From NCBI GenBank assembly GCA_964619235.1, contig CAZUCM010000002.1, forward strand, positions 1-27,415: a stretch of DNA of 27,415 nt, written 5' to 3'. The DNA is from an uncultured Terriglobales bacterium. GTDB lineage: Bacteria > Acidobacteriota > Terriglobia > Terriglobales > Acidobacteriaceae. The position numbers were made by a program, and so were the translations under genes. Below are positions 2,816-27,268 of this stretch, piece after piece. Below the pieces are notes generated by a model. It made no database searches and was not told the DNA's origin. It worked only from the letters and a program-made list of their open reading frames with translations. Position 1 is the stretch's first letter; the number at the start of each line of letters is the position of its first letter.

Positions 2816-2843
2816 TTGAGGGGAACGCTTTCGTTCCCCTCAA
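2816..2843. terminator. Hairpin between convergent genes, probable bidirectional terminator
   Basis: 12-bp perfect stem TTGAGGGGAACG / CGTTCCCCTCAA with a CTTT loop, overlapping the CLC stop codon. U-tracts are weak. Confidence 0.6.
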
Positions 2844-4762
2844 TTAGCTTGGCGGCCAATCGGGCTTGGCGAAGGCTTCGTACGTTTTGGCGAGGCCAGA
2901 GGAAAGATCAGCCGCAGGCGCAGGACGCGCTCGCGGCGGTTTTCCGCTTCCAGACTTAGCGAACGCGCCTTAAGCATATCGCCGAGAGAGATTACGCCCA
3001 GAAGCTTGCTGGCGTCGCTTCGATCCACAACGGGGAAGCGGGTCAGTCCGGTTTTCGCCATTCGTGAGACCACCACCCGCAGCGGTTCATCCGGATAGGC
3101 GAGTACGGGATTGTGCAGAATCAATTCCGAAAAACTGCGTCCGTCTCCGTCCCGCAATAAGCTCTGGATCTGGTGATGCGTAGCGACGCCGATCAGGTGT
3201 TGATCACGATCGACCACGGGATACAGCCGCTGCCGATGATGATTCTGGTTGGTGTGCAGGTGCCCGGCCATTTCGGCCGGCGTGGTATCCAGCGGCAAAG
3301 CGGCGATGTTGGTTCGCATGACCTCCCGGGTGAACAGGATTTCCAGCGGATCCACCGCGTATTCGCGGCTCAGATGGTATCCGCGGCGGGCGATCTTTTC
3401 CGTCAGGATCGAGCGCTTCAGGGTGAGCACGGTGAACCCGTAGGCAAGCATGGCGGCAAGCAGCAGCGGCAGCGCCATGTTCAAGTCGTGGGTGAGTTCC
3501 AAGGCGAAGACCACGCCCGTAAACGGAGAGCTCATCGTGCCTCCCAGCATGGCTCCCATGCTGACCAGGGGCCAGAATCCCATGCCTTCCTTGGGCAACA
3601 CCGGGGAAAGTAGTGCGCCAAGCGCGCCGCCCATCATCAGCAACGGGGCAAGCACACCGCCGGAGGTTCCCGAGCCTAGCGATACGGCCCATATGATGGA
3701 CTTGACCAGCAGTATGCCGAGGATGATCTTTGTCGCCACCTCCCCCTGGAGCAGCGTGCCAATCGTGTCATAGCCGACGCCCAGTGCTTGCGGGAAGATC
3801 AACCCGCCAATGCCGACCACGAGTCCGCCAAGGGCGGGCCACCACATCCAATGAATCGGCAGCTTGCGAAATCCGTCCTCGGCGGCATATACAGCCAAGG
3901 TCAGCAGTGCCGCCAGCGCTCCGGCCAGAAGGCCCAGAAGGGCGCACCCCAGCAATCCGCCCGGGCCGAGGAAGGCCTGATGCGGCGGGACGGGAAACAG
4001 CGGTCCCGGTCCGAGTGTGTAGCGGCGCATGGCCGCGGCTGCAACACTGGAAAGGGCGACTGGAATCACACTCCTGGGCTTCCACTCGAACAGCAATAGC
4101 TCGACGGCGAGCAGAACCGCCGCCAAAGGCGTTGCGAACGTAGCCGACATGCCGCCGGCGGCGCCGGCGACCAGCAGTGTCCTGCGCTCGGCGCTGGTCA
4201 GGCTGAAGAATTGGGCGATCAGGGAGCCAATCGCCCCCCCGGTGACAATGATGGGTCCCTCGGCGCCAAAAGGACCGCCGGATCCGATCGAGACGGCGGC
4301 CGAAACCGGCTTCCAGAAAGCTACTCTCGGTTCCACCTCCCCACCCTTCAGCAGGATGGCCTCAATTGCTTCCGGAATGCCGTGGCCGCGTATGCGCTCC
4401 GAACCATAGCGCGCCATGAAACCGACGATCAGTCCGCCGGTCACCGGCACAGCCAATTCCAGCCAGCCCAAGTGGTTGCCGGCCGGTGAAACGAAAGAAC
4501 TGCCCCTACGCTGGTAAAAGAAGAGGTTCGTGAACAGTCCGATCAGCCTGAGCAATCCCAGCGCGACGAAGGCGCAAACAGCGCCAATGACAGTTGCCAG
4601 CGCGCTGATCGGCAGCACACGCCAGGTGGTGGTGAAGTCGCCTAAGGTCTGCGCTCGCTCAACAGTTTCCCGGGCTCCGCGCGCCGGAAGGGCGGCCGCG
4701 ACATCATCCTTAAGGCTTTGGGCAGTTGGTTGGCCGGACTGCGCTGAAGCGGGGTGGGGCAA
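2840..4762 (-). CDS. CLC-family anion channel/transporter with C-terminal CBS pair
   Basis: CLC signature segments GHGIPE, GGPFGAEGP and GTSGGVLAP, many TM helices, and two CBS repeats (EVMRT...; RLYPVVD; RFPVVD...GVISLGD). The TTG start is uncertain. Confidence 0.93.
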   Translation of the reverse strand: MPHPASAQSGQPTAQSLKDDVAAALPARGARETVERAQTLGDFTTTWRVLPISALATVIGAVCAFVALGLLRLIGLFTNLFFYQRRGSSFVSPAGNHLGWLELAVPVTGGLIVGFMARYGSERIRGHGIPEAIEAILLKGGEVEPRVAFWKPVSAAVSIGSGGPFGAEGPIIVTGGAIGSLIAQFFSLTSAERRTLLVAGAAGGMSATFATPLAAVLLAVELLLFEWKPRSVIPVALSSVAAAAMRRYTLGPGPLFPVPPHQAFLGPGGLLGCALLGLLAGALAALLTLAVYAAEDGFRKLPIHWMWWPALGGLVVGIGGLIFPQALGVGYDTIGTLLQGEVATKIILGILLVKSIIWAVSLGSGTSGGVLAPLLMMGGALGALLSPVLPKEGMGFWPLVSMGAMLGGTMSSPFTGVVFALELTHDLNMALPLLLAAMLAYGFTVLTLKRSILTEKIARRGYHLSREYAVDPLEILFTREVMRTNIAALPLDTTPAEMAGHLHTNQNHHRQRLYPVVDRDQHLIGVATHHQIQSLLRDGDGRSFSELILHNPVLAYPDEPLRVVVSRMAKTGLTRFPVVDRSDASKLLGVISLGDMLKARSLSLEAENRRERVLRLRLIFPLASPKRTKPSPSPIGRQAN

Positions 4763-13484: not shown

Positions 13485-14576
13485 CTAGTCTCCCGGCATC
13501 GGGTGTTTGGCCTCATCGGCGTGAGGCACCAGTTCCATGTACAGCGCCCGCGGCACGGGAGTGTTCCAATGTGCCGCGGCCTTCGCATAGCCGACGATAC
13601 CCAGGAACAGTACCGCTATGGCCGCGGCGATGGCCCAGGCAGGAATCCTCACGGCACACATTCGCGGCACTCGCGGCAGCGACATTTGCAAGGCGTCCTT
13701 TGCCGGACAGACCGCGACACATTCCATGCAGCCGGTGCATTCGGCGGATTGCACGGTCACCAACTGTTGAACCGGCAGCAGCGAAGGGCAAGCCTTCGAG
13801 CAAATCCCGCAATCGATGCAAGCCGAGGCGTTGCGGCGGATGCTTGCCGGGCTGAACAACGCAGCCAGTCCCAGCAACGCGCCATATGGACAGGCATACC
13901 TGCACCAGAAATTCTGCAGGAACAGGGATGCGCCGGCCAGCAGGCTTAACACGATGAACCCGATTGTGCCCATGTGGCGGAAGAAATTGAGCATCTTTAC
14001 GTCCGCAATGGTCCCATACGGGCTACTCAGAAAGGCCGCAATGGAGGCCGGGGACATCGTTGCCACTGCCCAGATAAAGAAACCGAGCAACAAATACTTC
14101 AGTCCGCGCAGAGGCAGGTCAACTAAACGGGGCAGTTGAAACGTGCGGCGGAACAGCTTGCGGCCCGTGCGCCAAAAATATTCCGAAATTGTGCCGATCG
14201 GGCATAACCAGCTGCAAAACGTCTTGCGCAACAAAAACGCCATGGCCAGAAATGCCAGCAGCAGGAACATTCCGGCGGGGTGTACGGCCGGAACCTGACC
14301 GGTCATCAGCCAGTACTTAAGATTCATCATGGCCGCGATCGGCAGCCAGCCCTCAACGCCCGCCGGCCGCGCCACGGAACTGGGGCGGCCCGTCTCGAAT
14401 TGCCGCACCCACAGGTAGAAGACTTCGCCTAGGTAAAGGTTGAGCAGCAGGAACCCCAGTTGAAAGCCGTGGCGTAGTGCCTGGGAGTAGTCGTGCCGGG
14501 TTTGCCGCACGAACCTTCGTTTCCGCTCGCCCTCCGCGATTGAGCCGGGCACCCGGCTGGCAGGTATGCTCTTCAC
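13485..14576 (-). CDS. yccM: YccM-like membrane 4Fe-4S protein (NapH/polyferredoxin superfamily)
   Basis: GVEGWLPIAAMMNLKY, FCSWLCPIGT and WCRYACPYG (CxxxCP motifs), plus two CxxCxxCxxxCP clusters. Closely matches E. coli YccM as recalled. The GTG start is uncertain. Confidence 0.88.
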   Translation of the reverse strand: MKSIPASRVPGSIAEGERKRRFVRQTRHDYSQALRHGFQLGFLLLNLYLGEVFYLWVRQFETGRPSSVARPAGVEGWLPIAAMMNLKYWLMTGQVPAVHPAGMFLLLAFLAMAFLLRKTFCSWLCPIGTISEYFWRTGRKLFRRTFQLPRLVDLPLRGLKYLLLGFFIWAVATMSPASIAAFLSSPYGTIADVKMLNFFRHMGTIGFIVLSLLAGASLFLQNFWCRYACPYGALLGLAALFSPASIRRNASACIDCGICSKACPSLLPVQQLVTVQSAECTGCMECVAVCPAKDALQMSLPRVPRMCAVRIPAWAIAAAIAVLFLGIVGYAKAAAHWNTPVPRALYMELVPHADEAKHPMPGD

Positions 14577-15227: not shown

Positions 15228-15866
15228 ATGGCCGAAACCAGAGAGTTGCTCTATTTGATGCCGCCGAAGTTCGCCAATCCAGCCCCGCTGGGGCTTGCGG
15301 GCTTTGCCCTGACCACCTTTCTTCTCAATCTCCACAATGCCGGCCTGATCTCCATCGGCGCCGCATTGCCGGTGGGTCTTTTCTACGGAGGGTTGGCCCA
15401 ACTGGTTGCCGGGTTCCTGGAGTTTCGTACCGGCAACACCTTCGGCATGACCGCCTTTGGTTCCTACGGTGCGTTCTGGATATCGCTTGCCAGCATGGTG
15501 CTGATGCAGGTCAATAAGTGGCTTCCTCCGGAAGCCGTACAGGGATGGTTGCTGGCGACGCTGGTAGCCTGGACGATTTTTACGGCGGTGCTCCTGGTCG
15601 CGACCTTCCGGCACAGCAAAGCGCTGGTGTGGGTGTTCGCCACGCTGACCATCCTGTTCATACTGCTCGATGTGCAGGCGTGGACCGGGAATCAGCTGGT
15701 CGGCAGGATTGCCGGCTGGGAAGGCATTTTCTGTGCCCTGACCGCCTGGTACCTGATGGCGGCGATTCTGCTGAACGATAGCTTCGGCAGAGTAGTGTTG
15801 CCCGTCGGCCCGCTCGAGAAGACGGCAGCGCCGGTGATCGAGGCGGTTTCCCGCAAGAGCGCCTGA
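15228..15866 (+). CDS. satP: SatP/YaaH (GPR1/FUN34) acetate/succinate uptake transporter
   Basis: Family motif FANPAPLGL, plus FYGGLAQ and [16 protein letters not shown]. Six TM helices. Confidence 0.93.
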
Positions 15867-16349
15867 TCGGAGTTTGGCGCCGCAGTGCACCTGATTTTTG
15901 AGGACGGTGTTTCCCACTGAACGTTCAGAAGGCGCACCAGGCCGGGTAAATGCCATGTCGTGCGCGGATAACGTGAAGAATGGAGGTCAGATTGAGAGCC
16001 TGTCGGAGAGAAGGAGTTTTGAACGAAGATACAATACTGCGGCAAAACGTGTGTGCCCGATGGCCTCCCAAAAATACCACTTGAACCGCATTCGAACTAA
16101 GGCTTGCCTCGTTGCCTGCGCCCAGGATCGACGAGGGCGTGGCCGTCAGCGTAATCGATCATCGAGGATTTCATTGCGCCGCCGGCGCGTGACAAAAGTC
16201 ATTGGTTCCTGCGACTGCGACGGATAACGTTTAGCTGGTTACCGTGCTGATACACAATACGTAAGTGGTGAAATCGCTTTGATTCGTTGGCAGCGCGAAG
16301 CGCACCTGCCCGCCTTCTGATACGAACTTGGAGCAACGAGGAAATCGGC

Positions 16350-17048
16350 TTGCGACCGTGGATTGTGCTGCAACACGTTTCATGGGAAGGCCCCGGGGCA
16401 ATCGCCGGTGAAGCGCGCGCCCGGCGCATTCCCCTGGAAATCCACCGGATGGATTTGGATGCCCGTATTCCGGAGCCGGATGACCTCAGTGGGCTGATCG
16501 TAATGGGCGGGCCGATGGGCGTATACGAAACCGATCGTTATTCCTTTATCGAAGGGGAATGCGGGCTGATTGCAGAGGTCGTGCGCCGCGGTCTGCCCGT
16601 GCTCGGCGTATGCCTGGGCGCGCAGTTGTTGGCAAGCGCCCTCGGCGGACGCGTATACCGGGGGCCGGCGGCGGAAATTGGATTTGGAAACGTAGAGCTG
16701 ACAGAGGATGCACGGCAGGATCCGGTCTTCAAAGCGCTTCCGGCCACCTTGCCTGCATTTCACTGGCACGGGGATACGTTTGACCTGCCGGAGGGAGCGG
16801 TCCTGCTGGCGAAGAATGCAACTTACGCACACCAGGCATTCCGCTTCGGCAGAAACGCTTACGGATTGCAATTTCATAATGAGGTAGACCGGGAAACATG
16901 GCTGGGCTGGACGCCGCTTCTGCCCGGGTCGGCCGTTGCCGGCGCCGAACCGCAACGTGCCGAAGTCGAATGCGCAGGGAATGGCCTGTTCGCGCGGTTT
17001 TTCGAGATTGCTCAAGAGGTTGATTACATCAAGGCTGATTCGAGGTAG
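16350..17048 (+). CDS. Class I glutamine amidotransferase-like protein (stand-alone)
   Basis: GAGG RBS before the TTG at 16350. Contains LQHVSWEGPG, GLIVMGGPMGVY, nucleophile GVCLGAQ, FHWHGDTF and GLQFHNE (H-x-E). Confidence 0.92.
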   Translation: MRPWIVLQHVSWEGPGAIAGEARARRIPLEIHRMDLDARIPEPDDLSGLIVMGGPMGVYETDRYSFIEGECGLIAEVVRRGLPVLGVCLGAQLLASALGGRVYRGPAAEIGFGNVELTEDARQDPVFKALPATLPAFHWHGDTFDLPEGAVLLAKNATYAHQAFRFGRNAYGLQFHNEVDRETWLGWTPLLPGSAVAGAEPQRAEVECAGNGLFARFFEIAQEVDYIKADSR

Positions 17049-17056
17049 AGCGAACC

Positions 17057-17320
17057 ATGTACAAATGGATGCCCATCATTGACGAAAGCAGCTGCACAGG
17101 CTGTGGTTTATGTATCGCAGCCTGCGGTCCGAGGTCGCTGGCGCTGGCTGACGGGATTGCAGAACTCACTCTGCCCGATACCTGCGGAAGCGAGGAACAC
17201 TGCATATCGGTTTGTGCATCTGGCGCTATTCAAATGGCGTGGTTGCCTTTTACCGGAAACAGAAAAGTCGGGAAATGGAGGAACGGAACGCAAGGCGCGG
17301 CCGTCTGTTATCCGGGCTAA
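17057..17320 (+). CDS. Small dicluster ferredoxin with one atypical cluster motif
   Basis: CTGCGLCIAAC (canonical) and CGSEEHCISVC (second Cys replaced by Glu). Starts 8 nt after the GATase stop. Confidence 0.88.
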   Translation: MYKWMPIIDESSCTGCGLCIAACGPRSLALADGIAELTLPDTCGSEEHCISVCASGAIQMAWLPFTGNRKVGKWRNGTQGAAVCYPG

Positions 17321-17455: not shown

Positions 17456-19693
17456 ATGGCCATGGAAGCTATTGATAGAAGTTCTTCCAACCGGCACTTG
17501 GCTTTGGGCACGGTTTCCTTTACCGTCTGCTTTGCCGCCTGGGGTATGATTAGCGCTTTCGCCCCTCGTTTCAGGCAGCAATTACACCTCTCAGCCACGC
17601 AAACTGCCTTGCTGATTGCAGTTCCCGTATTGCTTGGCGCCTTGGCTCGCATTCCGATGGGTATGCTGACGGACCGGTTCGGCGGGCGGCTGGTTTTTTC
17701 CGCGCTAATGTTCTTTACCGCGCTGCCTTTGGTCTGTGTGCCCTTCGCGGTATCGTATCGGAGCTTATTGTTCGCCGCTTTCTTCCTGGGCCTGGCTGGC
17801 TCTTCCTTTGCCATCGGCATTGGATATGTTTCGCGCTGGTTTCCCATGGAGCGCCAAGGAAGCGCACTCGGCGTGTATGGACTGGGTAACATTGGGCAGT
17901 CCGCGGCGGTGTTCCTGGGCCCGGTGCTGGCGGCGGGCTTCGGCTTCCGGCGCGTTTATTGGGGATTAGCCGCGATCCTCGTCGCATGGGGAATCGCTTT
18001 TGCGATCTCTGCCCGCAACGTTTCCGGCGGTGTGCGCCCGAAAAGCGTCGGCGAAATGCTCTCTGTGCTGGCCCACGAGCGATTGTCCTGGGCATTGTCG
18101 GCCTTCTATTTCCTGACCTTCGGTGGATTTGTCGCTTTCTCCATCTACCTGCCGAGTCTGCTCAAGGACCAGTTCGGCTTGCGCCCCGCGGACGCCGGCT
18201 TCCGAACCGCCGGATTTGTGGTGCTGGCGACACTTTGCCGGCCGCTGGGCGGTTGGCTGTCCGATCACATTGGCGGGTCGCGGGTGCTGTCCTGGACCTT
18301 TCTGGGAATTGCGGGTTTTGCTTTGCTGCTGGCTTCGCCCACCATGCTCTCCTTTACCGTCGGAGCCCTGGGCTGCGCCGCTCTGCTGGGGATCGGCAAT
18401 GGAGCGGTATTTCAACTCGTTCCACGGTATTTCCCTGACCAGCGGGCGACGGTGACCGGCTTGGTCGGTGCCATGGGAGGTATGGGTGGATTCTTTCCAC
18501 CTCTATTGTTGGGCGCCTTTCGTGATCGTCTGGGCGTGGTATGGCCAGGGTTTCTTTTGCTCTCCGCCACTGCTGGCTTTCTGTGGTGGCTGAATCTGCG
18601 CGTCTTCCTGCCCCGGGAAGAAAAGCTGGAGAGATTGCTTCCTCCCAGCTTCCGGCGCACTGGCGACCGTCTCCGCGCCGGAGCGATTGCCACCTTGTGG
18701 ACCGGCGTTCTGATCGCGGCCATATTCGTGGGCTCGCGCAATCTGCAAAACTTTGATCCGGCGCTGGTGATCTATACCTTTGCGGTAGTCTTCGCCACCT
18801 GGGGCGTTATTTATCACTACGCTGTCTGGATTCAGAAGCCTCCCACGCGTATCTATTGGGAACGCGGATGGCAGCTCTTCCGGCAACAAGGAGTCTTCCA
18901 CAGCCTATGGCGCGTGATCGCGCTGGCGGGGACCCACTTGTTCGGGCAAACCTTTATTGCCAGGCGCTCGCTCACACGCTGGGCGATGCATCAATTGCTG
19001 TTCTGGGGCTGCCTGCTGGCGGCAGCCATCACTTTTCCTCTGGTTTTTGGATGGATTCACTTCACCAGCGCGCCTGACGATCAGATGATTTACATTGTGC
19101 ATCTGTTCGGATTTCCGGCCGGCCGCTTCCATCTCCACACGATTACCGCCGCCCTGCTCTTTCATGGACTCGATATTTCCGCCTTCCTCGTGCTAGGCGG
19201 AATTGCGCTCTCCCTGTGGCGCCGCATGCGGGACGAAGGCGCCATAGCGGTGCAGAGCCTGGCAATGGACTTCTTTCCGCTGATTTTGCTATTTGCGATC
19301 TCCGTGACCGGGTTGGCGCTAACCGTGTCACAGGAATGGCTGCGGGGAAGCTTCTATTCTTTCTTGGCGATTCTGCACGCCATCACGGTAATCACAGCTC
19401 TGCTGTATTTGCCGTTCGGCAAGTTCTTCCATATTTTTCAGCGCCCGGCACAACTTGGCGTAAAACTCTATCAGGAGACCGGCGAACGCGGCACAGGCGC
19501 GGTTTGCCGGCGCTGCGGGGAACGCTTTGCCTCGCGCATGCATATCGACGATTTGGAACAGGTCCTGCCCCAGGTTGGTTTTGATTACCGCATGCCCGGC
19601 CCGGCGGAACATTGGCAGGAATTATGCCCGGCCTGCAAGCGCAAGTCCCTCTCGCTGGCGCAACTCAAATTGAAAGAGGACGCGAATGGCTAA
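17456..19693 (+). CDS. Fusion of a NarK-type nitrate/nitrite MFS transporter (aa ~1-385) and a NarI-like cytochrome b membrane domain with a C-terminal CxxC/CxxC motif (aa ~400-745)
   Basis: NarK features: R65 (LARIPMG), R262 (CRPLGGWLSD), nitrate-signature-like GLAGSSF and GIGNGAVF, and FGGFVAF. Second domain: RWAMH512 and LH641...LPFGKFFH659 (18-residue His spacing as in NarI H187/H205), C684xxC687 and C724xxC727. Confidence 0.9.
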   Translation: MAMEAIDRSSSNRHLALGTVSFTVCFAAWGMISAFAPRFRQQLHLSATQTALLIAVPVLLGALARIPMGMLTDRFGGRLVFSALMFFTALPLVCVPFAVSYRSLLFAAFFLGLAGSSFAIGIGYVSRWFPMERQGSALGVYGLGNIGQSAAVFLGPVLAAGFGFRRVYWGLAAILVAWGIAFAISARNVSGGVRPKSVGEMLSVLAHERLSWALSAFYFLTFGGFVAFSIYLPSLLKDQFGLRPADAGFRTAGFVVLATLCRPLGGWLSDHIGGSRVLSWTFLGIAGFALLLASPTMLSFTVGALGCAALLGIGNGAVFQLVPRYFPDQRATVTGLVGAMGGMGGFFPPLLLGAFRDRLGVVWPGFLLLSATAGFLWWLNLRVFLPREEKLERLLPPSFRRTGDRLRAGAIATLWTGVLIAAIFVGSRNLQNFDPALVIYTFAVVFATWGVIYHYAVWIQKPPTRIYWERGWQLFRQQGVFHSLWRVIALAGTHLFGQTFIARRSLTRWAMHQLLFWGCLLAAAITFPLVFGWIHFTSAPDDQMIYIVHLFGFPAGRFHLHTITAALLFHGLDISAFLVLGGIALSLWRRMRDEGAIAVQSLAMDFFPLILLFAISVTGLALTVSQEWLRGSFYSFLAILHAITVITALLYLPFGKFFHIFQRPAQLGVKLYQETGERGTGAVCRRCGERFASRMHIDDLEQVLPQVGFDYRMPGPAEHWQELCPACKRKSLSLAQLKLKEDANG

Positions 19694-21923
19694 GCCTCCA
19701 GCTTCCTTAGAAGCCCTGAAGACGCAGTTCGGGCCTACGTTGAATTACCTTCCGCCCGGCGGCTGGAAAGACGAAGCGGTTCACGCGCCCGACAAACTCG
19801 TAAAAACTCACTGCTGCTTTTGTGGCCAGCAATGCGGCATTCAGCTGAAGGTGCGGGGAAACAAAATCATTGGCTTTGAACCCTGGGAAGATTTTCCGTT
19901 CAATCACGGCATGCTTTGTCCCAAGGGGGTTAAGCGCTACTTGCAGAGCGATCACCCGGACCGGCTGCTTCATCCGCTCATGCGCACGGATCATGGATTT
20001 CGGCAGGCCAACTGGGAAGAAGCATTGGAATTCACCGCACGCCGCATGCGTGAGATCCAGGCAAAGCATGGCAAAGACGCGGTTGCCGTTTTCGGAGGCG
20101 CATCGCTATCTACCGAAAAGTCCTACCTGATGGGAAAGTTCGCGCGTCTGGCAGTGGGCACCCGGCATATCGATTACAACGGACGCTTGTGCATGGTCTC
20201 GGCCGGTACCGCGTACAAATTGGCGTTCGGGATCGATCGCAGCACCATACCGTGGAGTGACATTCTCAAGGCGGAAGTCTTGTTCGTCATCGGCGCCAAC
20301 ATCGGCGATTGCGCTCCCATCACTACCGACTACGTCTGGCGCGCCCGCGATCAGGGCGCGCGCCTTGTGGTGGCCGATCCCCGCATGACCCCCATTACAC
20401 GCAATGCGGACCTGTATTTGCCTCTGCGGCCCGGCACCGATCTGGTGCTCCTGATGAGCATCCTGCACGTAATTCTGCTCGAAGGCCTGGAGGATCGCGA
20501 CTTCATCGATCGCTACACCACCGGCTTTGCCGCGGTGGCGGAGTCGGTCAATGCCTACGATCCGGTCACTGCCGCCCAGCAGACCGGCGTTCCCCCGGAG
20601 TCCATCGAGAAGGCGGCGCGCTGGATCGGCAAGTCCCGGCGGGTGGTATTCCTGCATGCGCGCGGCCTGGAACACCAGTCGAAGGGCGTGGAAAATTGCC
20701 TTGCGGTCATAAACATTGCACTGGCAACGGGAAATCTCGGGCACGAGGGCTCCGGGCCGACGATGATTACCGGCCAGGGAAATGGACAGGGCGGCCGCGA
20801 GCATGGACAAAAGTGCGATCAGCTTCCGGGGCAGCGATCGCTTACCGACCCGGCGGCGCGCGAGCACGTTGCGCGCGTCTGGGGAATCAATCCGGACGAC
20901 CTTCCGCAACCCGGCTACACTGCGCCCGAGATCATGGAGGCGATTCATCGCGGCGAGATCAAGGCGCTGCTTTCCACTTGCTTCAATCCGTTGGTTTCGC
21001 TTCCTGACGCGAACTTCACCCGCGAGGCGTTGTCGCGGCTGGAGTTCCTGGGTGTGATCGATTTCTTTATGTCGGAAACCGCGCACCATGCCGACGTCGT
21101 GCTCGCGGGCAGTTTGCACGAAGAGGAAGATGGCTTAGGCTGTAGCACCGAAGGACGGGTGATCCATTGGAAAAAATCCGTCGATCCACCCGGCGAGGCC
21201 CGCCGCGATTCGGACATCCTGGTGGATTTGGCCCGCCGTTTGGGGAAAGGTCAGTATTTTCCCTTCGAGAAGCCGGCGGAAATTCTGGAAGAACTGCGCG
21301 AAGCTTCGCGCGGCGGGGTGGCTGACTATTACGGCATCACCTACGAGAAGGTGGACAAAATGAAGGGCGTCTTCTGGCCATGTCCGGCGCTGGAGCATCC
21401 GGGGACGCCACGCCTGTTCGAAGGGATGAAATTTCCTACCAGTGACGGGAAGGCGCACTTCCAACTTACAGAATGGCGGCCATCGGGCGATCCCGTGGAT
21501 GCACACTATCCCATCTACCTGACCACCGGACGCGTGGTGAGCCAGTATTTGTCGGGTACCCAAACTCGACGGATTGGTGCTCTCGTAGAGCAATATCCCG
21601 AGCCGCGGGCGGAGGTGCATCCCCGTTTGGCGGAGCAGTTTGGCATCAAGGATGGGGACTGGGTGACGGTTGAGAGCCGTCGCGACAAGCTCACGCTGCA
21701 AGCGATGGTGGTGAAAACCATTCGCCCGGACACCGTCTTCATTCCATATCACTGGCCGGGCATTCGCAGCGCCAATCGTTTGACGCATCGCACGCTCGAT
21801 CCACGCAGTAAGATCCCGGAATTCAAGGTCTCAGCATGCCGCATCGCCAAGGCAACCGGATTGGAGGCCGCCGCTGACGATCGTGCCCCGGAACACAGCG
21901 GCGCCGGGCAAGGAGCGAAGTAG
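19686..21923 (+). CDS. Cytoplasmic bis-MGD molybdoenzyme of the NasA/NapA nitrate reductase clade
   Basis: N-terminal [4Fe-4S] ligands C43/C46/C50/C78 with LCPKG. Mo ligand in NGRLC169M170 (Cys-Met as in Nap/Nas, not Cys-His as in FDH). [11 protein letters not shown] and [17 protein letters not shown]. No Tat leader. Confidence 0.9.
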
Positions 21924-22519
21924 TGTTCGGATACGAATTCTACGTTGATCCCTCCCGCTGTATCGGTTGCCGCTCATGCCTGCAGGCCTGCGAGGAGTGC
22001 GAAACGCATCGCGGCAAGTCGATGATCAACTTTGACTTTATCGAGCGCAGCGACAACATCTACTCCTCAGCTTACGTCTGCTGGCACTGCGACGAACCCA
22101 CCTGCGCGCAGGTCTGCCCGGCGGATGCCATCAAGAAAGGCGAGGATGGGATCGTTCATTCCTCACTGAAGCCCCGCTGCATCGCCTGTAACAACTGCGT
22201 GCTGGCCTGTCCCTTCGGGATTCCCAAAATGATGATTCCCGAGCAGCAGATGATGAAATGCGATATGTGCTACGATCGCACCTCCGTGGGCAAGCGTCCC
22301 ATGTGCGCTACTGTCTGCCCCAGCCAGGCTCTGGCCTATGTGAGGCCCGAGGAGATCAGGCCCCGCCGTGAAAAGCCGGTCAATATCTTTTATTTCGGAA
22401 GTCAGAAGATTACCACCAAGGTGTACATGATGGCCCCCGCCGAGCGCGATGCGATCGCGCTCGACGTGGTCGATTATATGTGGGAGGACAACCGTGAACT
22501 GGCTACGGCGCGCGAGTAG
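21923..22519 (+). CDS. Four-cluster 4Fe-4S electron transfer subunit (DmsB/NrfC/HycB-like)
   Basis: [37 protein letters not shown] and CDMC...CATVCP give 16 ligand Cys. The GTG start overlaps the upstream TAG. Confidence 0.93.
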
Positions 22520-23003
22520 CGAACCCTTATGGAAAGACGAATTCTCCGTCCACACCGCCGATGAGCGCTATGTGTCTCGCCGGCAGATGACGAAATTCCT
22601 CGTGCTCACCAGCTTCGGCATGTTCGTGGGGAATGTCTTGATTCTGGTTCGCTCCTTCTTTCACCACCCACGGCAATATCCTGAGTTGGACCTGGGGCAC
22701 ATTGGGGAGATTCCGGTGGGTGGGGTGAAATTGTTCGGATATCCCAGCGAGAGGGATCGCTGTATCCTGGTGCGCACCGCCGAGGCTTCCTATGCGGCCT
22801 ATAGCCAGAAATGCACACATCTGTCGTGCGCAGTGTACTACTCCAAATCCAGCAATCGGCTGGAATGCCCTTGCCATAATGGCGCCTTCTCGATCACCGA
22901 CGGATCGCCGCTGCAAGGCCCACCCCGGCGTCCCTTGCCCAGGGTGGTGCTGGACGAACGAGGTGGGGAACTGGTTGCTGTCGGCTTGAGAGGAGAACCA
23001 TGA
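22494..23003 (+). CDS. Membrane-anchored Rieske [2Fe-2S] protein with a twin-arginine motif
   Basis: GGAGG RBS before the GTG at 22494. SRRQMTKF followed by a TM helix. Box I CTHLSC and box [10 protein letters not shown], then GPPRRPL. Confidence 0.92.
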
Positions 23004-23248
23004 GTGAACTTTCCAAGCTGCCGCCACAAACCCGTGGGCTGATTGCTATCACAGGCGCCATGTCACTGATCGCTGTGCTTCTCATACTGCAAATTTATCT
23101 GTTGAGTGCCGCATTGGAGGCCTTTCTTGCTGGCGACATGCGCGCCGCTCTGCCGGCAGCAGTCTTTTCCGGCATTATATTTCTGGCTTCTCTCGGCTTA
23201 TCGTTGTTCGTGGACAGGGTCGACGCTGAAGCGCATCGCGACATCTAA
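23000..23248 (+). CDS. Small two-TM membrane protein, last gene of the operon (possibly DUF6755-like; from memory, unverified)
   Basis: ATGA overlap with the Rieske gene and a GGAG RBS. Two hydrophobic helices flank LEAFLAGD. Confidence 0.8.
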   Translation: MSELSKLPPQTRGLIAITGAMSLIAVLLILQIYLLSAALEAFLAGDMRAALPAAVFSGIIFLASLGLSLFVDRVDAEAHRDI

Positions 23249-23573: not shown

Positions 23574-25580
23574 CTACGAGTTGGACACGGGAAACTGCGC
23601 CCGCAGTATGTTGGTCATTGCCGGGCTCAGCTGCTTAAACAGTTCCGCGTTATACGATGCGCAATACGGAACTCCGGAAACCGCCCCGTACTCGATACTT
23701 GGATCCGCGGTGCCGTCCTGCGGCCGCGTGGGATCCATCGTATCGACCGGGAAGACGCCATATGCCTTCGGAACATTGAGATTATTCTGCGTTAAATTGT
23801 TTTGTACGATCTGTTGCGTCGCGATTGAATAAGAACGGGAGGTCGCCGCCGGCGTACCTTCCGCAACCGCCGGATCCACGTTGGTGGCTACGATGGAAAT
23901 CGTGTAATCGCTGTTCAGGTAGATCTCGAAGGTGCGGAATTGCTGCGGAAAATCCCTGAGTGACGAGGTTTCGACCTGCCAGAAGCCGCTTTGCGGCCCC
24001 CCACTTGCCGTTGGCGGAAACGCTTTCACCGTGTTGAGATGACGGTGTCCGGCAATCCACATCAGCAGATTGGGAGTGTTTTGCAGCGTGGCAACCAGAT
24101 TCGTCAGGGAGACGGCATTCTGTTCGGTTGCGTTGGGGTCCTTGGCGGACTCCCACCATTCCATTTCGCATCCGATATTGCCGACGGCGATCGGCACATG
24201 GGCGGCGATGATCATGAGCTGATTGGCGGCCTGGCCGGCAGCCAGTTCCGCCTGCAGCCATCCCCACCGCGTCGCATCGAGGAATCCATGCCCGTGAATA
24301 TCGTGGGAGCCGTCGGTTTCCGACTGCGTGTCGTCAAGCACGATGACCTTGAGCGGAATATCCGACTTGGGAACGAAACTATAACAGGCAAAGCCGCTTC
24401 CCATCGATGGGTCGACCAGGTTCAGACCATGACCAACCGGAGAGGTGGTGGTGGTGAAGAATTCCTGGATCCAATCGGTTCTCAGGAGGGGACGGCGATT
24501 CGGATCGGCGGCCACCGTTGGAGGCGTGCTGAAGTTCGCCACCGGCCCAGCGTCTTTGATACTGCCGTCAGGAGTCGAACCGTCGATTACGCCCATGTAA
24601 TAAGACTGTTCTTGCAGGCTGGCGGAGGTATCAAACAGGCAGGGAAACGTCTTCATGGAATTTGGGTTTACCAGATCCCCTGCCGCCCAAACCGTGTCGG
24701 CGGTGAATGCCGGTTGAAGATTGAGCGCCGGTCCGGCATTGACGGGAACGCTGCCCAGCCAGAAATGATCGTGGTTGCCCATCACCTGATACCAGGGGAT
24801 CAACCGGTTGAGGCCGGCGGCCTGAAAGGGCTTTTGATAGTCGATCGAGGTCGCTCCCAGATGGGCGCCCGAGCTGGGAGTGATCATTTTGCCGTCGATG
24901 ACGTCAATATACCAGCGTAGCTCGTTATATTGAGTGTTGTTGCAGGTATCGCCCAGAGAGATCCCGAAATCGAACGGCGTTTGCTTGTGCAGGGCATTGA
25001 CCGTCTGAATGGCGGCGTCAAGAACATGGGTCGTATACGGCATAATCGGCGAGTATAAGGACGTCATGGGCGCCCCATATACCGGATCCAGCTGTTGCGC
25101 ATAGATCAGCTGATTCGGAGCTTCCTTGTCGGTGATGTGGGTGTCGGTGAACGCGAAGAAGTTCACCAGCCGTTGCAGCCGGACGGGCGCCGGGTTGCTA
25201 TAACCGGAGGGCATGAGGTCGAAGCGCTGAACCAGTGCCAGGGGTCCACCGTAGGAGTAGTTGCCGTAACCATATTTTCCGTATTGGGAAACCAGCGGAA
25301 GCTCGGTCGGGAATAGCCCCGTGCCCGAGTTGGGAGCGGAAGGTTTCACCGGCATGGGAAACGACAGCACCCGCTGCGCGGTGGTCGCGACCGTGGAATC
25401 AATCGGGTAGGCGGCGGCCGAAGCGTTTCCGCCGCATCCGGTAGTCAAAGCGTTTAGGTAAAGACAGGCAGCCGTCCCCGCCGAATACTTGAAGAACTCG
25501 CGGCGCGTCACGCCGTGTACCATTTTCAAATCGTCGCTGCTCAAGATGGACGTGCGCTGTTTTGAATCGCTATCACCCAT
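23574..25580 (-). CDS. Tat-exported calcineurin-like metallophosphoesterase lipoprotein (resembles the TIGR03768 family)
   Basis: Tat motif TRREFFK and lipobox-like TTGC. Metallophosphoesterase motifs DTH, GDTCNN, GNHDH, AAHVP and GHRH. Confidence 0.88.
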   Translation of the reverse strand: MGDSDSKQRTSILSSDDLKMVHGVTRREFFKYSAGTAACLYLNALTTGCGGNASAAAYPIDSTVATTAQRVLSFPMPVKPSAPNSGTGLFPTELPLVSQYGKYGYGNYSYGGPLALVQRFDLMPSGYSNPAPVRLQRLVNFFAFTDTHITDKEAPNQLIYAQQLDPVYGAPMTSLYSPIMPYTTHVLDAAIQTVNALHKQTPFDFGISLGDTCNNTQYNELRWYIDVIDGKMITPSSGAHLGATSIDYQKPFQAAGLNRLIPWYQVMGNHDHFWLGSVPVNAGPALNLQPAFTADTVWAAGDLVNPNSMKTFPCLFDTSASLQEQSYYMGVIDGSTPDGSIKDAGPVANFSTPPTVAADPNRRPLLRTDWIQEFFTTTTSPVGHGLNLVDPSMGSGFACYSFVPKSDIPLKVIVLDDTQSETDGSHDIHGHGFLDATRWGWLQAELAAGQAANQLMIIAAHVPIAVGNIGCEMEWWESAKDPNATEQNAVSLTNLVATLQNTPNLLMWIAGHRHLNTVKAFPPTASGGPQSGFWQVETSSLRDFPQQFRTFEIYLNSDYTISIVATNVDPAVAEGTPAATSRSYSIATQQIVQNNLTQNNLNVPKAYGVFPVDTMDPTRPQDGTADPSIEYGAVSGVPYCASYNAELFKQLSPAMTNILRAQFPVSNS

Positions 25581-25807
25581 GTCGTTTCTCCGGAAATTTT
25601 TATTTGGCTGCTTCGGTATTGGAAAACGGCCGGGCTCTCCAGCAGCTTTTTTGGCTTACGTCTTATCTATTGATCGGCGTTTGTTCACGTCGGCATTAGC
25701 CGGGATTCGCAGAAGCGACGCGAGTTCATCCTGGAGGAAAAAACTGCCGATAAGGTTTGTTGAACGTGCGCAGATCGCTTAGAGAATTCTTAGGTTACAA
25801 AGCAAAC

Positions 25808-27268
25808 ATGAATATGATTTCCAAACTCTGGTCGTCGATCGTTTTGATGTTGGTTTTCACGCTGCTTGCCGGATGCGGCGGTTCTCCGCAGCCCGATCCC
25901 TTGAGCGCCAAAAACCTCAACCTGATTTTTGTCGTCAGCGAGGACTTGAATTACAACGCTCCCGGGGACATCAATCCCACCACGGCAAACCTCACGACCA
26001 AAGGTCTGCGGCGCTCACTCTCTATGGGGACATTTCTGAAGCGGCAGGTCCTGGGCGGAAATAATGTAACCGGCATATACGCGATCGAGCCGATGACCCA
26101 TTTGCAGACCGCGAACGATTATCCCGACATGGTGGGGCTGGAAGCGATTCAACAGTTCGCCCTGCTGAATGAGGTCAGCGCGTTTGCCGGGAATAATCCC
26201 CCTTATACCGCCGATAGTTATCCGATCTTCACCTCGTACGCGGCAAATTCCGTACCGGCCGGAGTTGCTCCGCCGCTGCTGCCCTGCCCGGCCTGCCAGG
26301 GTATTGATTTCAAGGACGAGAACGGCGACAACGAAACTCTGGTCGGCGGTATCGTCAACGCCAATGTCCCGGGATTCTATGTCTTCTCGGCGCCCTGGGA
26401 GACGGTCAGCGCCATCATGGCCAACCTTAACCAGCGGGAGGGTTACAACCTGTCGCTGCCCGCGTCCTATGCCGGTCCGAACGATTCATATGCGATCTCG
26501 ATCGCACCCTCGGAAAGGAGCGCCAGCCTGGCCACCTATGACAGCCATGCGACTCCGTCGGCCATGTATCCGGTGTTTCCCTCCACGGCGGTCGCCGGCA
26601 CTCCATGTTCGATGCAGACGCCCTTCAAAATTCAGGTGACCGCCGGCAGCGGCGGTGCTGTCGCTCCAGCGGCAATCAATACCAGCGAGACGCTTTACTT
26701 CATTCGTCACGTCGAGGCGCATCCGGTAAGCTATTTCGAAGACGGCAACTATGTTGCGGCGGGACAGTGGCGCGCCCTGGATCTTCCCAATGCGCTACGC
26801 GGCAAAATCCAGCCCACCCAGGTCTACTCCATCGATCCCGCTTTCGGCGTTCCCAGCGGCACGGTGACGAGTATCCCCGCCTCCTATGTCCGGGCCGCTC
26901 TGACTGCGGCGCCGTACGCCATCGCCAACAATTTGCCCTTCAACTTGGCCGCCGGCATCCCCGTTTTCGCGCAGAATCCGCCTCAGTTGTCCACCTTGGC
27001 CGCCAAGTTTTTTTTTACCGGCGGACAGTTCTCCAACCAGGCCACATTGGCGGCTTGGGAACATCTGCACATCCCGACCACGGTCAACGCGCTCATCGCC
27101 AGCTATTTTCCAAATGGCGGCGGTCCCCAGGCCCCCAATTGGCCGGACAACGACTACGACACAGTCTGGACGGTGACGCTCGACGCCCAAGGCAACCTGA
27201 CCGTAGATAACCGGACGTGCGAAGGCATCAACTCGGCTGACCTGCCAACCACGCCTCCTCAATTCTGA
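25808..27268 (+). CDS. Lipoprotein with histidine-phosphatase-like domain(s)
   Basis: Signal peptide with lipobox LAGC. The C-terminal domain has LYFIRHVEAHP (RHG-like), WEHLHIP and WPDNDYDTVW. The N-terminal half looks like a degenerate copy. Confidence 0.7.
   Translation: MNMISKLWSSIVLMLVFTLLAGCGGSPQPDPLSAKNLNLIFVVSEDLNYNAPGDINPTTANLTTKGLRRSLSMGTFLKRQVLGGNNVTGIYAIEPMTHLQTANDYPDMVGLEAIQQFALLNEVSAFAGNNPPYTADSYPIFTSYAANSVPAGVAPPLLPCPACQGIDFKDENGDNETLVGGIVNANVPGFYVFSAPWETVSAIMANLNQREGYNLSLPASYAGPNDSYAISIAPSERSASLATYDSHATPSAMYPVFPSTAVAGTPCSMQTPFKIQVTAGSGGAVAPAAINTSETLYFIRHVEAHPVSYFEDGNYVAAGQWRALDLPNALRGKIQPTQVYSIDPAFGVPSGTVTSIPASYVRAALTAAPYAIANNLPFNLAAGIPVFAQNPPQLSTLAAKFFFTGGQFSNQATLAAWEHLHIPTTVNALIASYFPNGGGPQAPNWPDNDYDTVWTVTLDAQGNLTVDNRTCEGINSADLPTTPPQF

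Follow-up and report, generated by a model that had tools for sequence, protein, structure and literature searches.

A NarK-type transporter fused to a NarI-like cytochrome b heads an apparently undescribed operon for a probable nitrate reductase in Acidobacteriota

What kind of enzyme system begins with a nitrate transporter that continues, in frame, into a membrane cytochrome? The DNA analysed here, which we call the window, is a 27,415-nucleotide stretch from an uncultured Terriglobales bacterium of the Acidobacteriaceae (GenBank assembly GCA_964619235.1, contig CAZUCM010000002.1, positions 1 to 27,415 of the forward strand). One of its genes joins a nitrate/nitrite transporter of the NarK type to a NarI-like membrane cytochrome b, and it is the first of five translationally coupled genes with overlapping starts and stops, which encode in order the NarK~cytochrome b protein, a molybdenum (Mo) subunit, an iron-sulfur (FeS) subunit, a Rieske protein, and a DUF6755 protein (Table 1). 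An initial annotation of the window had proposed the chimera as one open reading frame (ORF) of 745 residues, and our analysis confirms that it is real, conserved, and free of a stop codon at the junction. An identical database protein (P0001) is 743 residues long and matches the second ATG, at 17462, which has AAGGA 5 nt ahead of it; residue numbers below are those of the 745-residue ORF. The two halves are connected, as first described, by a short charged linker: PREEKLERLLPPSFRRTGDR, about 20 residues long, contains neither a stop codon nor a homopolymer run, its length and charge are kept across 44 aligned genomes, and 7 of the 22 residues from the last NarK helix to the first cytochrome b helix are Lys or Arg. 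The AlphaFold2 model of the full-length fused protein has a predicted local distance difference test score (pLDDT) of 89.1 and a predicted template-modelling score (pTM) of 0.75.

The N-terminal half is a complete transporter domain. It matches the Pfam major facilitator superfamily (MFS) model MFS_1 over residues 21-321 (E 2.6e-45), the full-length AlphaFold2 model places the 12 helices of the MFS fold ahead of the linker, and the NCBIfam NarK model TIGR00886 is by far the best-scoring family for the domain (238 bits, residues 13-345). Its best matches in the PDB are NarU (4iu8) and NarK (4jr9, 4u4t), with E-values of about 1.5e-18. In the alignment to NarU and NarK, R65 is matched to the arginine within ALLRVP and R262 to the one within IARSVGG; therefore both substrate arginines, R89 and R305 in Escherichia coli NarK, are present, as had been claimed together with the 12 helices. 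R262 and the GGFFPP motif are invariant and R65 is nearly invariant in the corresponding family alignment (A3). Sequence and predicted fold identify the domain as NarK-type, a predicted nitrate/nitrite porter.

The identity of the C-terminal half is subtler. A hidden Markov model (HMM) scan, proposed with the initial annotation as a check on both halves, recovers MFS_1 and NarK, whereas the Pfam model for the NarI family, Nitrate_red_gam (PF02665), reaches a sub-threshold 19.3 bits (E 9.5e-4) and covers residues 570-629 only; one stand-alone relative, P0365, scores 23.5 bits against the same model. The domain also matches QmoC (E 8.5e-6), as well as TcuB and DsrM. These single-sequence family matches are weak, yet all point to one superfamily and are consistent with a NarI-like cytochrome. 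A single-sequence search of the PDB with the C-terminal domain alone returned nothing useful, and a family profile was needed. With a 34-sequence alignment of the cytochrome-domain family (A1) as the profile, E. coli NarI is the best match among PDB sequences (E 4e-4). The profile segment LLHavtVivlLlylPFgKlfHifqRp aligns to NarI such that H641 and H659 pair with NarI H187 and H205, with an 18-residue spacing in both proteins, and we take H641 and H659 to correspond to these two NarI heme ligands because the profile alignment pairs them at the same spacing. As in NarI, their context is a PFxKxxH motif. The confident AlphaFold2 model of the cytochrome b domain (pLDDT 93.2, pTM 0.86) has mycobacterial EtfD (9ojn) as its top Foldseek match, with a probability of 1.00, followed by the NarI chains 1siw_C, 1y5i_C, and 1q16_C at probabilities of 0.97-0.99 and target-normalised TM-scores of 0.45-0.50. 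The fold is NarI-like, with weak Foldseek E-values (0.016-0.25); EtfD and NarI are the sole specific PDB matches, the others being unrelated G-protein-coupled receptors at lower probabilities. We conclude that the domain belongs to the NarI superfamily as a distant, six-helix member and that the earlier identification as NarI-like holds at the level of the fold, not of orthology.

NarI-type histidines had been predicted for this domain, and three of them, H512, H641, and H659, are invariant across the family; a counterpart of NarI H66 is missing, so that the set of four found in NarI (H56, H66, H187, H205) is represented by three. H512 is equated with NarI H56 by position only, and at position 570 roughly half of the members have His and the remainder Asn. 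The Lys and Arg residues of the cytochrome b part alternate along the chain, with 7 in the linker span, 1, 8, 1, 3, and 0 in the successive loops, and 13 in the C-terminal tail. This positive-inside alternation places the linker, H512, H659, and the Cys-containing tail on the cytoplasmic side. With three invariant histidines and no H66, a predicted heme on the cytoplasmic side, ligated by H512 and H659, is well supported, and a second, outer heme near H641 is possible, with a single assured ligand. The four near-invariant cysteines of the tail look like a zinc-ribbon or rubredoxin-type knuckle.

How widespread is the fusion? More than 120 protein clusters of 740-766 residues, labelled only 'MFS transporter', cover the whole fused protein at 74-83% identity; their sources are Terriglobales, Candidatus Sulfotelmatobacter, and numerous soil metagenomes. 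One genome per species was scanned, with a 9-sequence alignment as query since the 34-sequence alignment A1 is too diverse, and cytochrome-domain relatives were found in at least 580 genomes; the fused-versus-split pattern was read in the best 80 loci of these. At 62-80% identity in the C-terminal domain there are 65 loci, 59 of which encode NarK and cytochrome b as one uninterrupted ORF; of the other six, four are frameshifted inside the NarK part and two are cut by a contig end. Thus the fusion is intact as one ORF in 59 of the 63 species genomes that can be assessed. At 51-56% identity, all 15 loci have a stand-alone cytochrome b gene for a protein of about 350-400 residues. These unfused relatives retain the cytochrome b-Mo-FeS-Rieske cluster, with narK adjoining or elsewhere in it: directly upstream of the cytochrome b gene in L072 and L082, and after the Rieske gene in L069, L076, and L078. 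Since narK is a separate but nearby gene in some of the unfused loci, the fusion joined neighbouring genes of one cluster. In addition, the proteins P0300 (829 residues) and P0313 (821 residues) are divergent NarK~cytochrome b fusions with 35-40% identity and longer C-terminal extensions, and may have arisen earlier or in separate fusion events.

In some database entries the two halves appear as separate proteins. Two of these, P0187 and P0147, were considered as stand-alone cytochromes and rejected; their DNA shows the NarK part in another frame. The interruption lies at the domain junction in L001 and L003 and inside the NarK part in L005, L008, and L011. Loci L001, L003, L005, L008, and L066 are on contigs of long-read 'MFD' metagenome-assembled genomes in which single-base frameshifts split the fused gene. 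As the 'split' entries are frameshifts, mostly in long-read assemblies, they are not evidence for natural splits, and such assemblies are a trap for surveys of fused versus split genes. The initial annotation had named a stop or frameshift at the junction, or the lack of any independent carrier, as grounds for abandoning the chimera. Neither applies, because the chimera is in frame, real, and conserved in many independent genomes. Most carriers are Acidobacteriota (Terriglobia, Bryobacterales, Thermoanaerobaculia, Vicinamibacterales, and Holophagales), including the cultured Paludibaculum fermentans (L064). Single bins with the fusion are labelled Verrucomicrobiota, Planctomycetota, Dormibacterota, Obscuribacterales, and Acidimicrobiia, and some of these labels may reflect mis-binning or gene transfer.

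Table 1. Features of the fused gene and of the operon that it heads (window positions; aa, residues in ORF numbering).
Feature	Position	Strand	Basis or remark
Fused narK~cytochrome b gene	17456..19693	+	single uninterrupted 745-aa ORF; probable start ATG 17462, giving 743 aa
NarK-type MFS domain, aa 1-385; 12 helices, R65 and R262, Gly-rich nitrate-signature motifs	17456..18610	+	MFS_1, TIGR00886, NarU/NarK alignment
Cytoplasmic charged linker, aa 386-405, PREEKLERLLPPSFRRTGDR	18611..18670	+	open frame; length conserved
NarI-superfamily cytochrome b domain, aa 406-678; 6 helices, H512/H641/H659 invariant, motif LPFGKFFHIFQRP	18671..19489	+	
Cytoplasmic tail; C684, C687, C724, C727 near-invariant	19490..19690	+	conservation in alignment A1; weak zinc-finger/FeS-subunit matches
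Mo-bisPGD catalytic subunit, NasC-like, N-terminal 4Fe-4S domain	19686..21923	+	NasC NF047855, Pfam domains
Four-cluster [4Fe-4S] electron-transfer subunit, DmsB/FdnH/NarH class	21923..22519	+	Fer4_11, DmsB TIGR02951
Rieske [2Fe-2S] protein; twin-arginine motif SRRQMTKFL, one helix, CTHLSC...CPCH	22494..23003	+	Pfam Rieske E 2.4e-10
DUF6755 (PF20540), 82-aa two-helix membrane protein, last operon gene	23000..23248	+	E 1.1e-9

The fused gene and the two that follow it have the layout of a complex iron-sulfur molybdoenzyme (CISM): adjacent genes encode a membrane anchor, a subunit that has an FS0 domain and molybdenum-bis-pyranopterin guanine dinucleotide (Mo-bisPGD), and a four-cluster FeS protein. 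The order cytochrome b-Mo-FeS-Rieske(-DUF6755) is found in essentially every locus; some 80 loci across many species share it. In the window, the ATG of the Mo-subunit gene overlaps the stop codon of the fused gene by 8 nt (ATGGCTAA). The Mo subunit contains the Pfam domains Molybdop_Fe4S4, Molybdopterin, and Molydop_binding; its best family is NasC (NF047855, 765.7 bits, versus 588.8 for Fdh-alpha), its PDB neighbours are FdhF and Desulfovibrio desulfuricans NapA, and its translation has no twin-arginine translocation (Tat) signal. At the Mo-ligand site, the motif GRLCMVSAG contains Cys-Met. This site is Cys-Met in Nap and Nas enzymes as opposed to Sec/Cys-His in formate dehydrogenases. A formate dehydrogenase, suggested by FdhF as the nearest solved structure, was thus rejected on the higher NasC score, the Cys-Met motif, and the linked narK. 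The FeS subunit matches Fer4_11 (E 1.8e-18) and DmsB (E 1.3e-28), and its translation contains four Cys groups and no signal peptide.

The Rieske ORF opens at 22449 and probably starts at GTG 22494, which is preceded by GGGAGGA. The best NCBIfam matches of the protein are QcrA, PetC, and AioB. Across 59 loci of the fused and unfused clades, its N-terminus reads PLW(R/K)EEFSV...YVxRRQFTKFLxLTS, in which PLW(R/K)EEFSV is a conserved cytoplasmic N-terminal motif; the pattern includes a twin-arginine motif of the Tat type, and one membrane helix comes after it. A protein of the bc1 type with a Tat motif should face the periplasm, and the operon encodes no partner for it there. A cupredoxin of the plastocyanin/azurin family is encoded about 16 kb from the operon (754-1347, + strand); it is a conceivable periplasmic partner of the Rieske protein. 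The Rieske protein and the cytochrome b of the operon are not the pair of a bc1/b6f-type complex: the former is bc1/b6f/Aio-like, and the latter is of the NarI type and not the bc type. DUF6755 occupies the same position in most related loci and may be a small subunit of the complex. In databases the five proteins are named 'MFS transporter', 'assimilatory nitrate reductase catalytic subunit' or 'molybdopterin oxidoreductase family protein', 'ferredoxin', 'Rieske', and 'DUF6755', and the fusion marks a whole operon type whose parts annotation pipelines scatter under these separate names.

Neighbouring genes were counted within 7 kb of the operon in 86 loci. A YtfE/ScdA-like di-iron protein is encoded in 33 of them, a Crp/Fnr-type regulator in 21, an NnrS-like protein in 18, and a hemerythrin in 15. 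These recurring neighbours look like the signature of a nitric-oxide or nitrite stress regulon. No siroheme nitrite reductase is encoded in the seven contexts annotated with Pfam. A regulatory FNR/Crp box was tried as evidence and rejected: the pattern TTGAT-N4-ATCAA, with up to 2 mismatches, has 10 matches versus 8.6 expected, and none precedes the operon. A perfect palindrome with Crp/Fnr-like half-sites and a spacer of 3 nt instead of 4 nt, TTGATTACATCAA, lies at 17020-17032, within the 3' end of a GATase gene and just upstream of the start of a small 2x[4Fe-4S] ferredoxin gene (17057-17320, + strand). The ferredoxin gene in turn lies just upstream of the fused gene and has a counterpart in L024 only. 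A NapH/MauN-like membrane polyferredoxin (Fer4_5) is encoded in the window at 13485-14576 (- strand) and recurs near the operon in L001, L008, L009, L012, and L014; in L001 (12565-13566) its gene directly follows DUF6755 on the same strand, and the protein may provide an alternative route of electron input or serve in maturation. The window also encodes a CLC channel/antiporter with CBS domains at 2840-4762 (- strand), and L088 encodes one at 15397-17220, about 3 kb from the operon. Since CLC proteins can carry nitrate, this proximity may be non-accidental. Finally, a TIGR03768-family metallophosphoesterase (917 bits; 23574-25580, - strand) and the adjoining gene for a 503-residue predicted lipoprotein without a family match (25757-27268, + strand) appear unrelated to the nitrate operon.

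How might the encoded proteins work together? We propose, with moderate confidence, that they form a nitrate reductase that is linked to quinol and has its active site in the cytoplasm, and in which the membrane anchor carries its own nitrate/nitrite porter. The NarK domain would import nitrate to the cytoplasm and probably export nitrite. The NarI-like cytochrome b domain would oxidise quinol from the quinol pool and relay the electrons through heme b to the cytoplasmic face, at the H512/H659 heme; a second heme near H641 is possible. From the cytoplasmic face, electrons would pass to the four-cluster FeS subunit and on to the Nas/Nap-type Mo subunit, where nitrate would be reduced. The fusion would set a 1:1 stoichiometry and place the substrate gate beside the enzyme. 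The initial annotation had suggested a metabolon of this kind, with transport tethered to the anchor of the reductase, or, alternatively, transport that might be gated by redox state. The metabolon is plausible and is strengthened by gene context, because the fused gene overlaps the Mo gene and is followed by the FeS gene, the partners that a NarI-type anchor requires; it must be amended in that the reductase is Nas/Nap-like and not NarGH, and that the operon adds a Tat-anchored Rieske protein and DUF6755, which the initial annotation had not noted. Fusion and gene order suggest, in addition, that substrate could be channelled. As for physiology, the nitric-oxide-stress and Crp/Fnr genes nearby and the lack of a linked nitrite reductase are circumstantial evidence for a dissimilatory function, or one at low oxygen, rather than for pure assimilation, and we consider such a role probable.

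Several observations weigh against this proposal. Three of the component families score below their curated limits: the NarK domain, at 238 bits, falls short of the TIGR00886 cut-off of 311.7; the Nitrate_red_gam match, at 19.3 bits, lies below the gathering threshold of 22.9; and the Mo subunit, at 765.7 bits, does not reach the NasC equivalog cut-off of 1100. With three of the four NarI histidine ligands conserved, a two-heme wire across the membrane is not assured. The window itself contains none of the nitric-oxide-stress neighbours seen at other loci. Finally, a Rieske protein with a Tat motif, expected on the periplasmic side, is left unexplained by a simple NarGHI-like scheme.

These points leave room for other readings, and the foremost is a purely assimilatory Nas enzyme, in which nitrite is made for biosynthesis, the cytochrome b is mainly a tether, and the electron donor may be ferredoxin or NAD(P)H, not quinol. 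NasC is the best family for the Mo subunit, and the names given to its homologues by the Joint Genome Institute (JGI) agree; moreover, in the window a small ferredoxin gene immediately precedes the fused gene. Nas systems also have NarK-type transporters and Rieske-type proteins with them, for example Paracoccus NasABGHC (PMC3475470). However, the ferredoxin gene is shared with one other locus only, the operon has no NAD(P)H- or flavin-binding subunit, and the seven annotated contexts contain no nitrite reductase gene. The invariant heme-ligand histidines and the four-cluster subunit indicate electron transfer at the membrane, and the recurring neighbours are nitric-oxide-stress and Crp/Fnr genes. 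We therefore hold pure assimilation to be unlikely, although it is the strongest of the alternatives.

The periplasmic Rieske protein and the missing fourth histidine, taken together, open three possibilities: a Qo-like site, export of the Mo and FeS subunits as hitch-hikers, and entry of electrons from periplasmic donors. The first would make the operon an unrecognised class of energy-conserving nitrate reductase, widespread among Acidobacteriota and other soil phyla. Its parts would be cytoplasmic Nas-type and four-cluster subunits, the NarK-fused cytochrome b in the membrane, and a periplasmic bc1-type Rieske protein that, with the cytochrome b, forms a Qo-like outer site at which the electrons of quinol are split between cytoplasmic nitrate and a periplasmic acceptor. 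We regard this as a speculative and rather unlikely reading. Were it correct, the genes that soil surveys count as 'assimilatory nasA' would actually be respiratory. The combination of a NarI-type cytochrome with a Tat-anchored Rieske protein is in any case an unexplained bioenergetic arrangement.

The second possibility, an enzyme that faces the periplasm, seems improbable to us. Here the Mo and FeS subunits would be exported on the Tat signal of the Rieske protein, as AioA is with AioB, and electrons from quinol would come to these subunits by way of cytochrome b and the Rieske protein, as in haloarchaeal pNar with NarB and NarC. The overlap of the Rieske gene with the FeS gene fits such co-export, and a Rieske protein and cytochrome b with Nar have a precedent in haloarchaea (PMC3509893). 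But a fused NarK, or a narK beside the unfused clusters, would serve little purpose if nitrate were reduced outside. Likewise, NarI-type anchors pass electrons to partners in the cytoplasm, the positive-inside pattern also puts the conserved Cys tail and the PFGKFFH end there, and neither large subunit has a signal peptide.

Could the system run in reverse, oxidising nitrite, with the Rieske protein as the electron exit to periplasmic carriers and NarK bringing nitrite in and taking nitrate out? NarK-type antiport is reversible in principle, and it is hard to see what a high-potential periplasmic Rieske protein would do in a reductase. Known nitrite oxidoreductases, however, are of the Nar type and not the Nas/Nap type, the contexts inspected contain no cytochrome c or oxidase gene linked to the operon, and the carriers are heterotrophic soil bacteria, whose lineages are not known for a nitrite-oxidising phenotype; we consider this reading very improbable. 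Least credible of all is that the gene is an artefact of a lost stop codon or misassembly, or that its C-terminal domain is a heme-free structural appendage, for although the halves are separate in some database entries and the Pfam NarI match is sub-threshold, those entries are the frameshifts described above, the single ORF of 59 independent genomes and the conserved linker refute the artefact, and conservation extends to the His ligands, to the fold, and to the partner genes.

If a cytoplasmic, quinol-linked nitrate reductase with a built-in porter is the correct reading, the covalent union of a porter with an electron-input subunit would be a clear natural metabolon of transport and catalysis, and its 1:1 complex would be open to purification and structural study. 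Furthermore, the carriers are abundant in soil and peat, so a wrong assignment as assimilatory or respiratory would bias the inference of nitrogen cycling from metagenomes. In the full-text literature, whose coverage is incomplete such that an earlier report is possible, we found no description of the fusion or of the cytochrome b-NasC-FeS-Rieske operon, which apparently represents an undescribed type of membrane-bound nitrate reductase.

How does this system compare with those already known? E. coli NarI, the anchor of NarGHI (1Q16 chain C), is the best PDB match, has the same fold, carries a His pair 18 residues apart within PFxKxxH, and is likewise partnered by a four-cluster FeS subunit and a Mo subunit. 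However, NarI has five helices and H66, while the cytochrome b of the fused protein has six helices, no H66 equivalent, and an extra tail with four cysteines. In comparison to NarGHI as a whole, there is a Nas/Nap-like Mo subunit instead of NarG, a transporter fusion, a Rieske protein, and a score below the Pfam threshold. DsrM, QmoC, HdrE, TcuB, and EtfD are also members of the NarI superfamily, with weak HMM matches in the case of QmoC, DsrM, and TcuB and the top fold match in the case of EtfD. In QmoC, TcuB, and EtfD, too, this membrane module is fused to a further domain. In these proteins the partner is an FeS or HdrD-like redox domain and the context is sulfur, tricarballylate, or electron-transfer flavoprotein metabolism, whereas here the partner is a solute transporter.

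On the transporter side, the solved NarK and NarU structures share both substrate arginines and the Gly-rich signature motifs with the fused protein. In the NarK1-NarK2 tandem, for example Paracoccus NarK, a gene fusion similarly couples nitrate-handling modules, but here the second module is a predicted heme-binding redox domain and not a transporter, and the NarK part is compact (about 385 residues). The cytoplasmic enzymes NasC, NasA, and NarB and the Paracoccus NasABGHC system resemble the operon in that its catalytic subunit is closest to NasC and a NarK-type transporter and a Rieske-type protein are linked. Nas enzymes, however, are soluble and fed by NAD(P)H, ferredoxin, or flavodoxin, and NasG is a soluble NirD-like Rieske protein; the operon instead encodes a four-cluster subunit, a membrane cytochrome b, and a Tat-anchored bc1-type Rieske protein, with no linked nitrite reductase. 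Haloarchaeal pNar, with NarB (Rieske) and NarC (cytochrome b), is a nitrate reductase cluster that encodes both types of protein, but its cytochrome b is of the bc1 type, and its enzyme is of the NarGH type, is exported by Tat to the outside, and has no fused transporter. Caldithrix has a Nap cluster together with a Rieske/cytochrome b complex of the canonical kind (PMC5317091). Thus, among the closest known systems, none joins a NarK porter and a NarI-like cytochrome in one polypeptide, and none combines a Nas-type catalytic subunit, a four-cluster protein, a NarI-like anchor, and a Tat-anchored Rieske protein, as the operon described here does.

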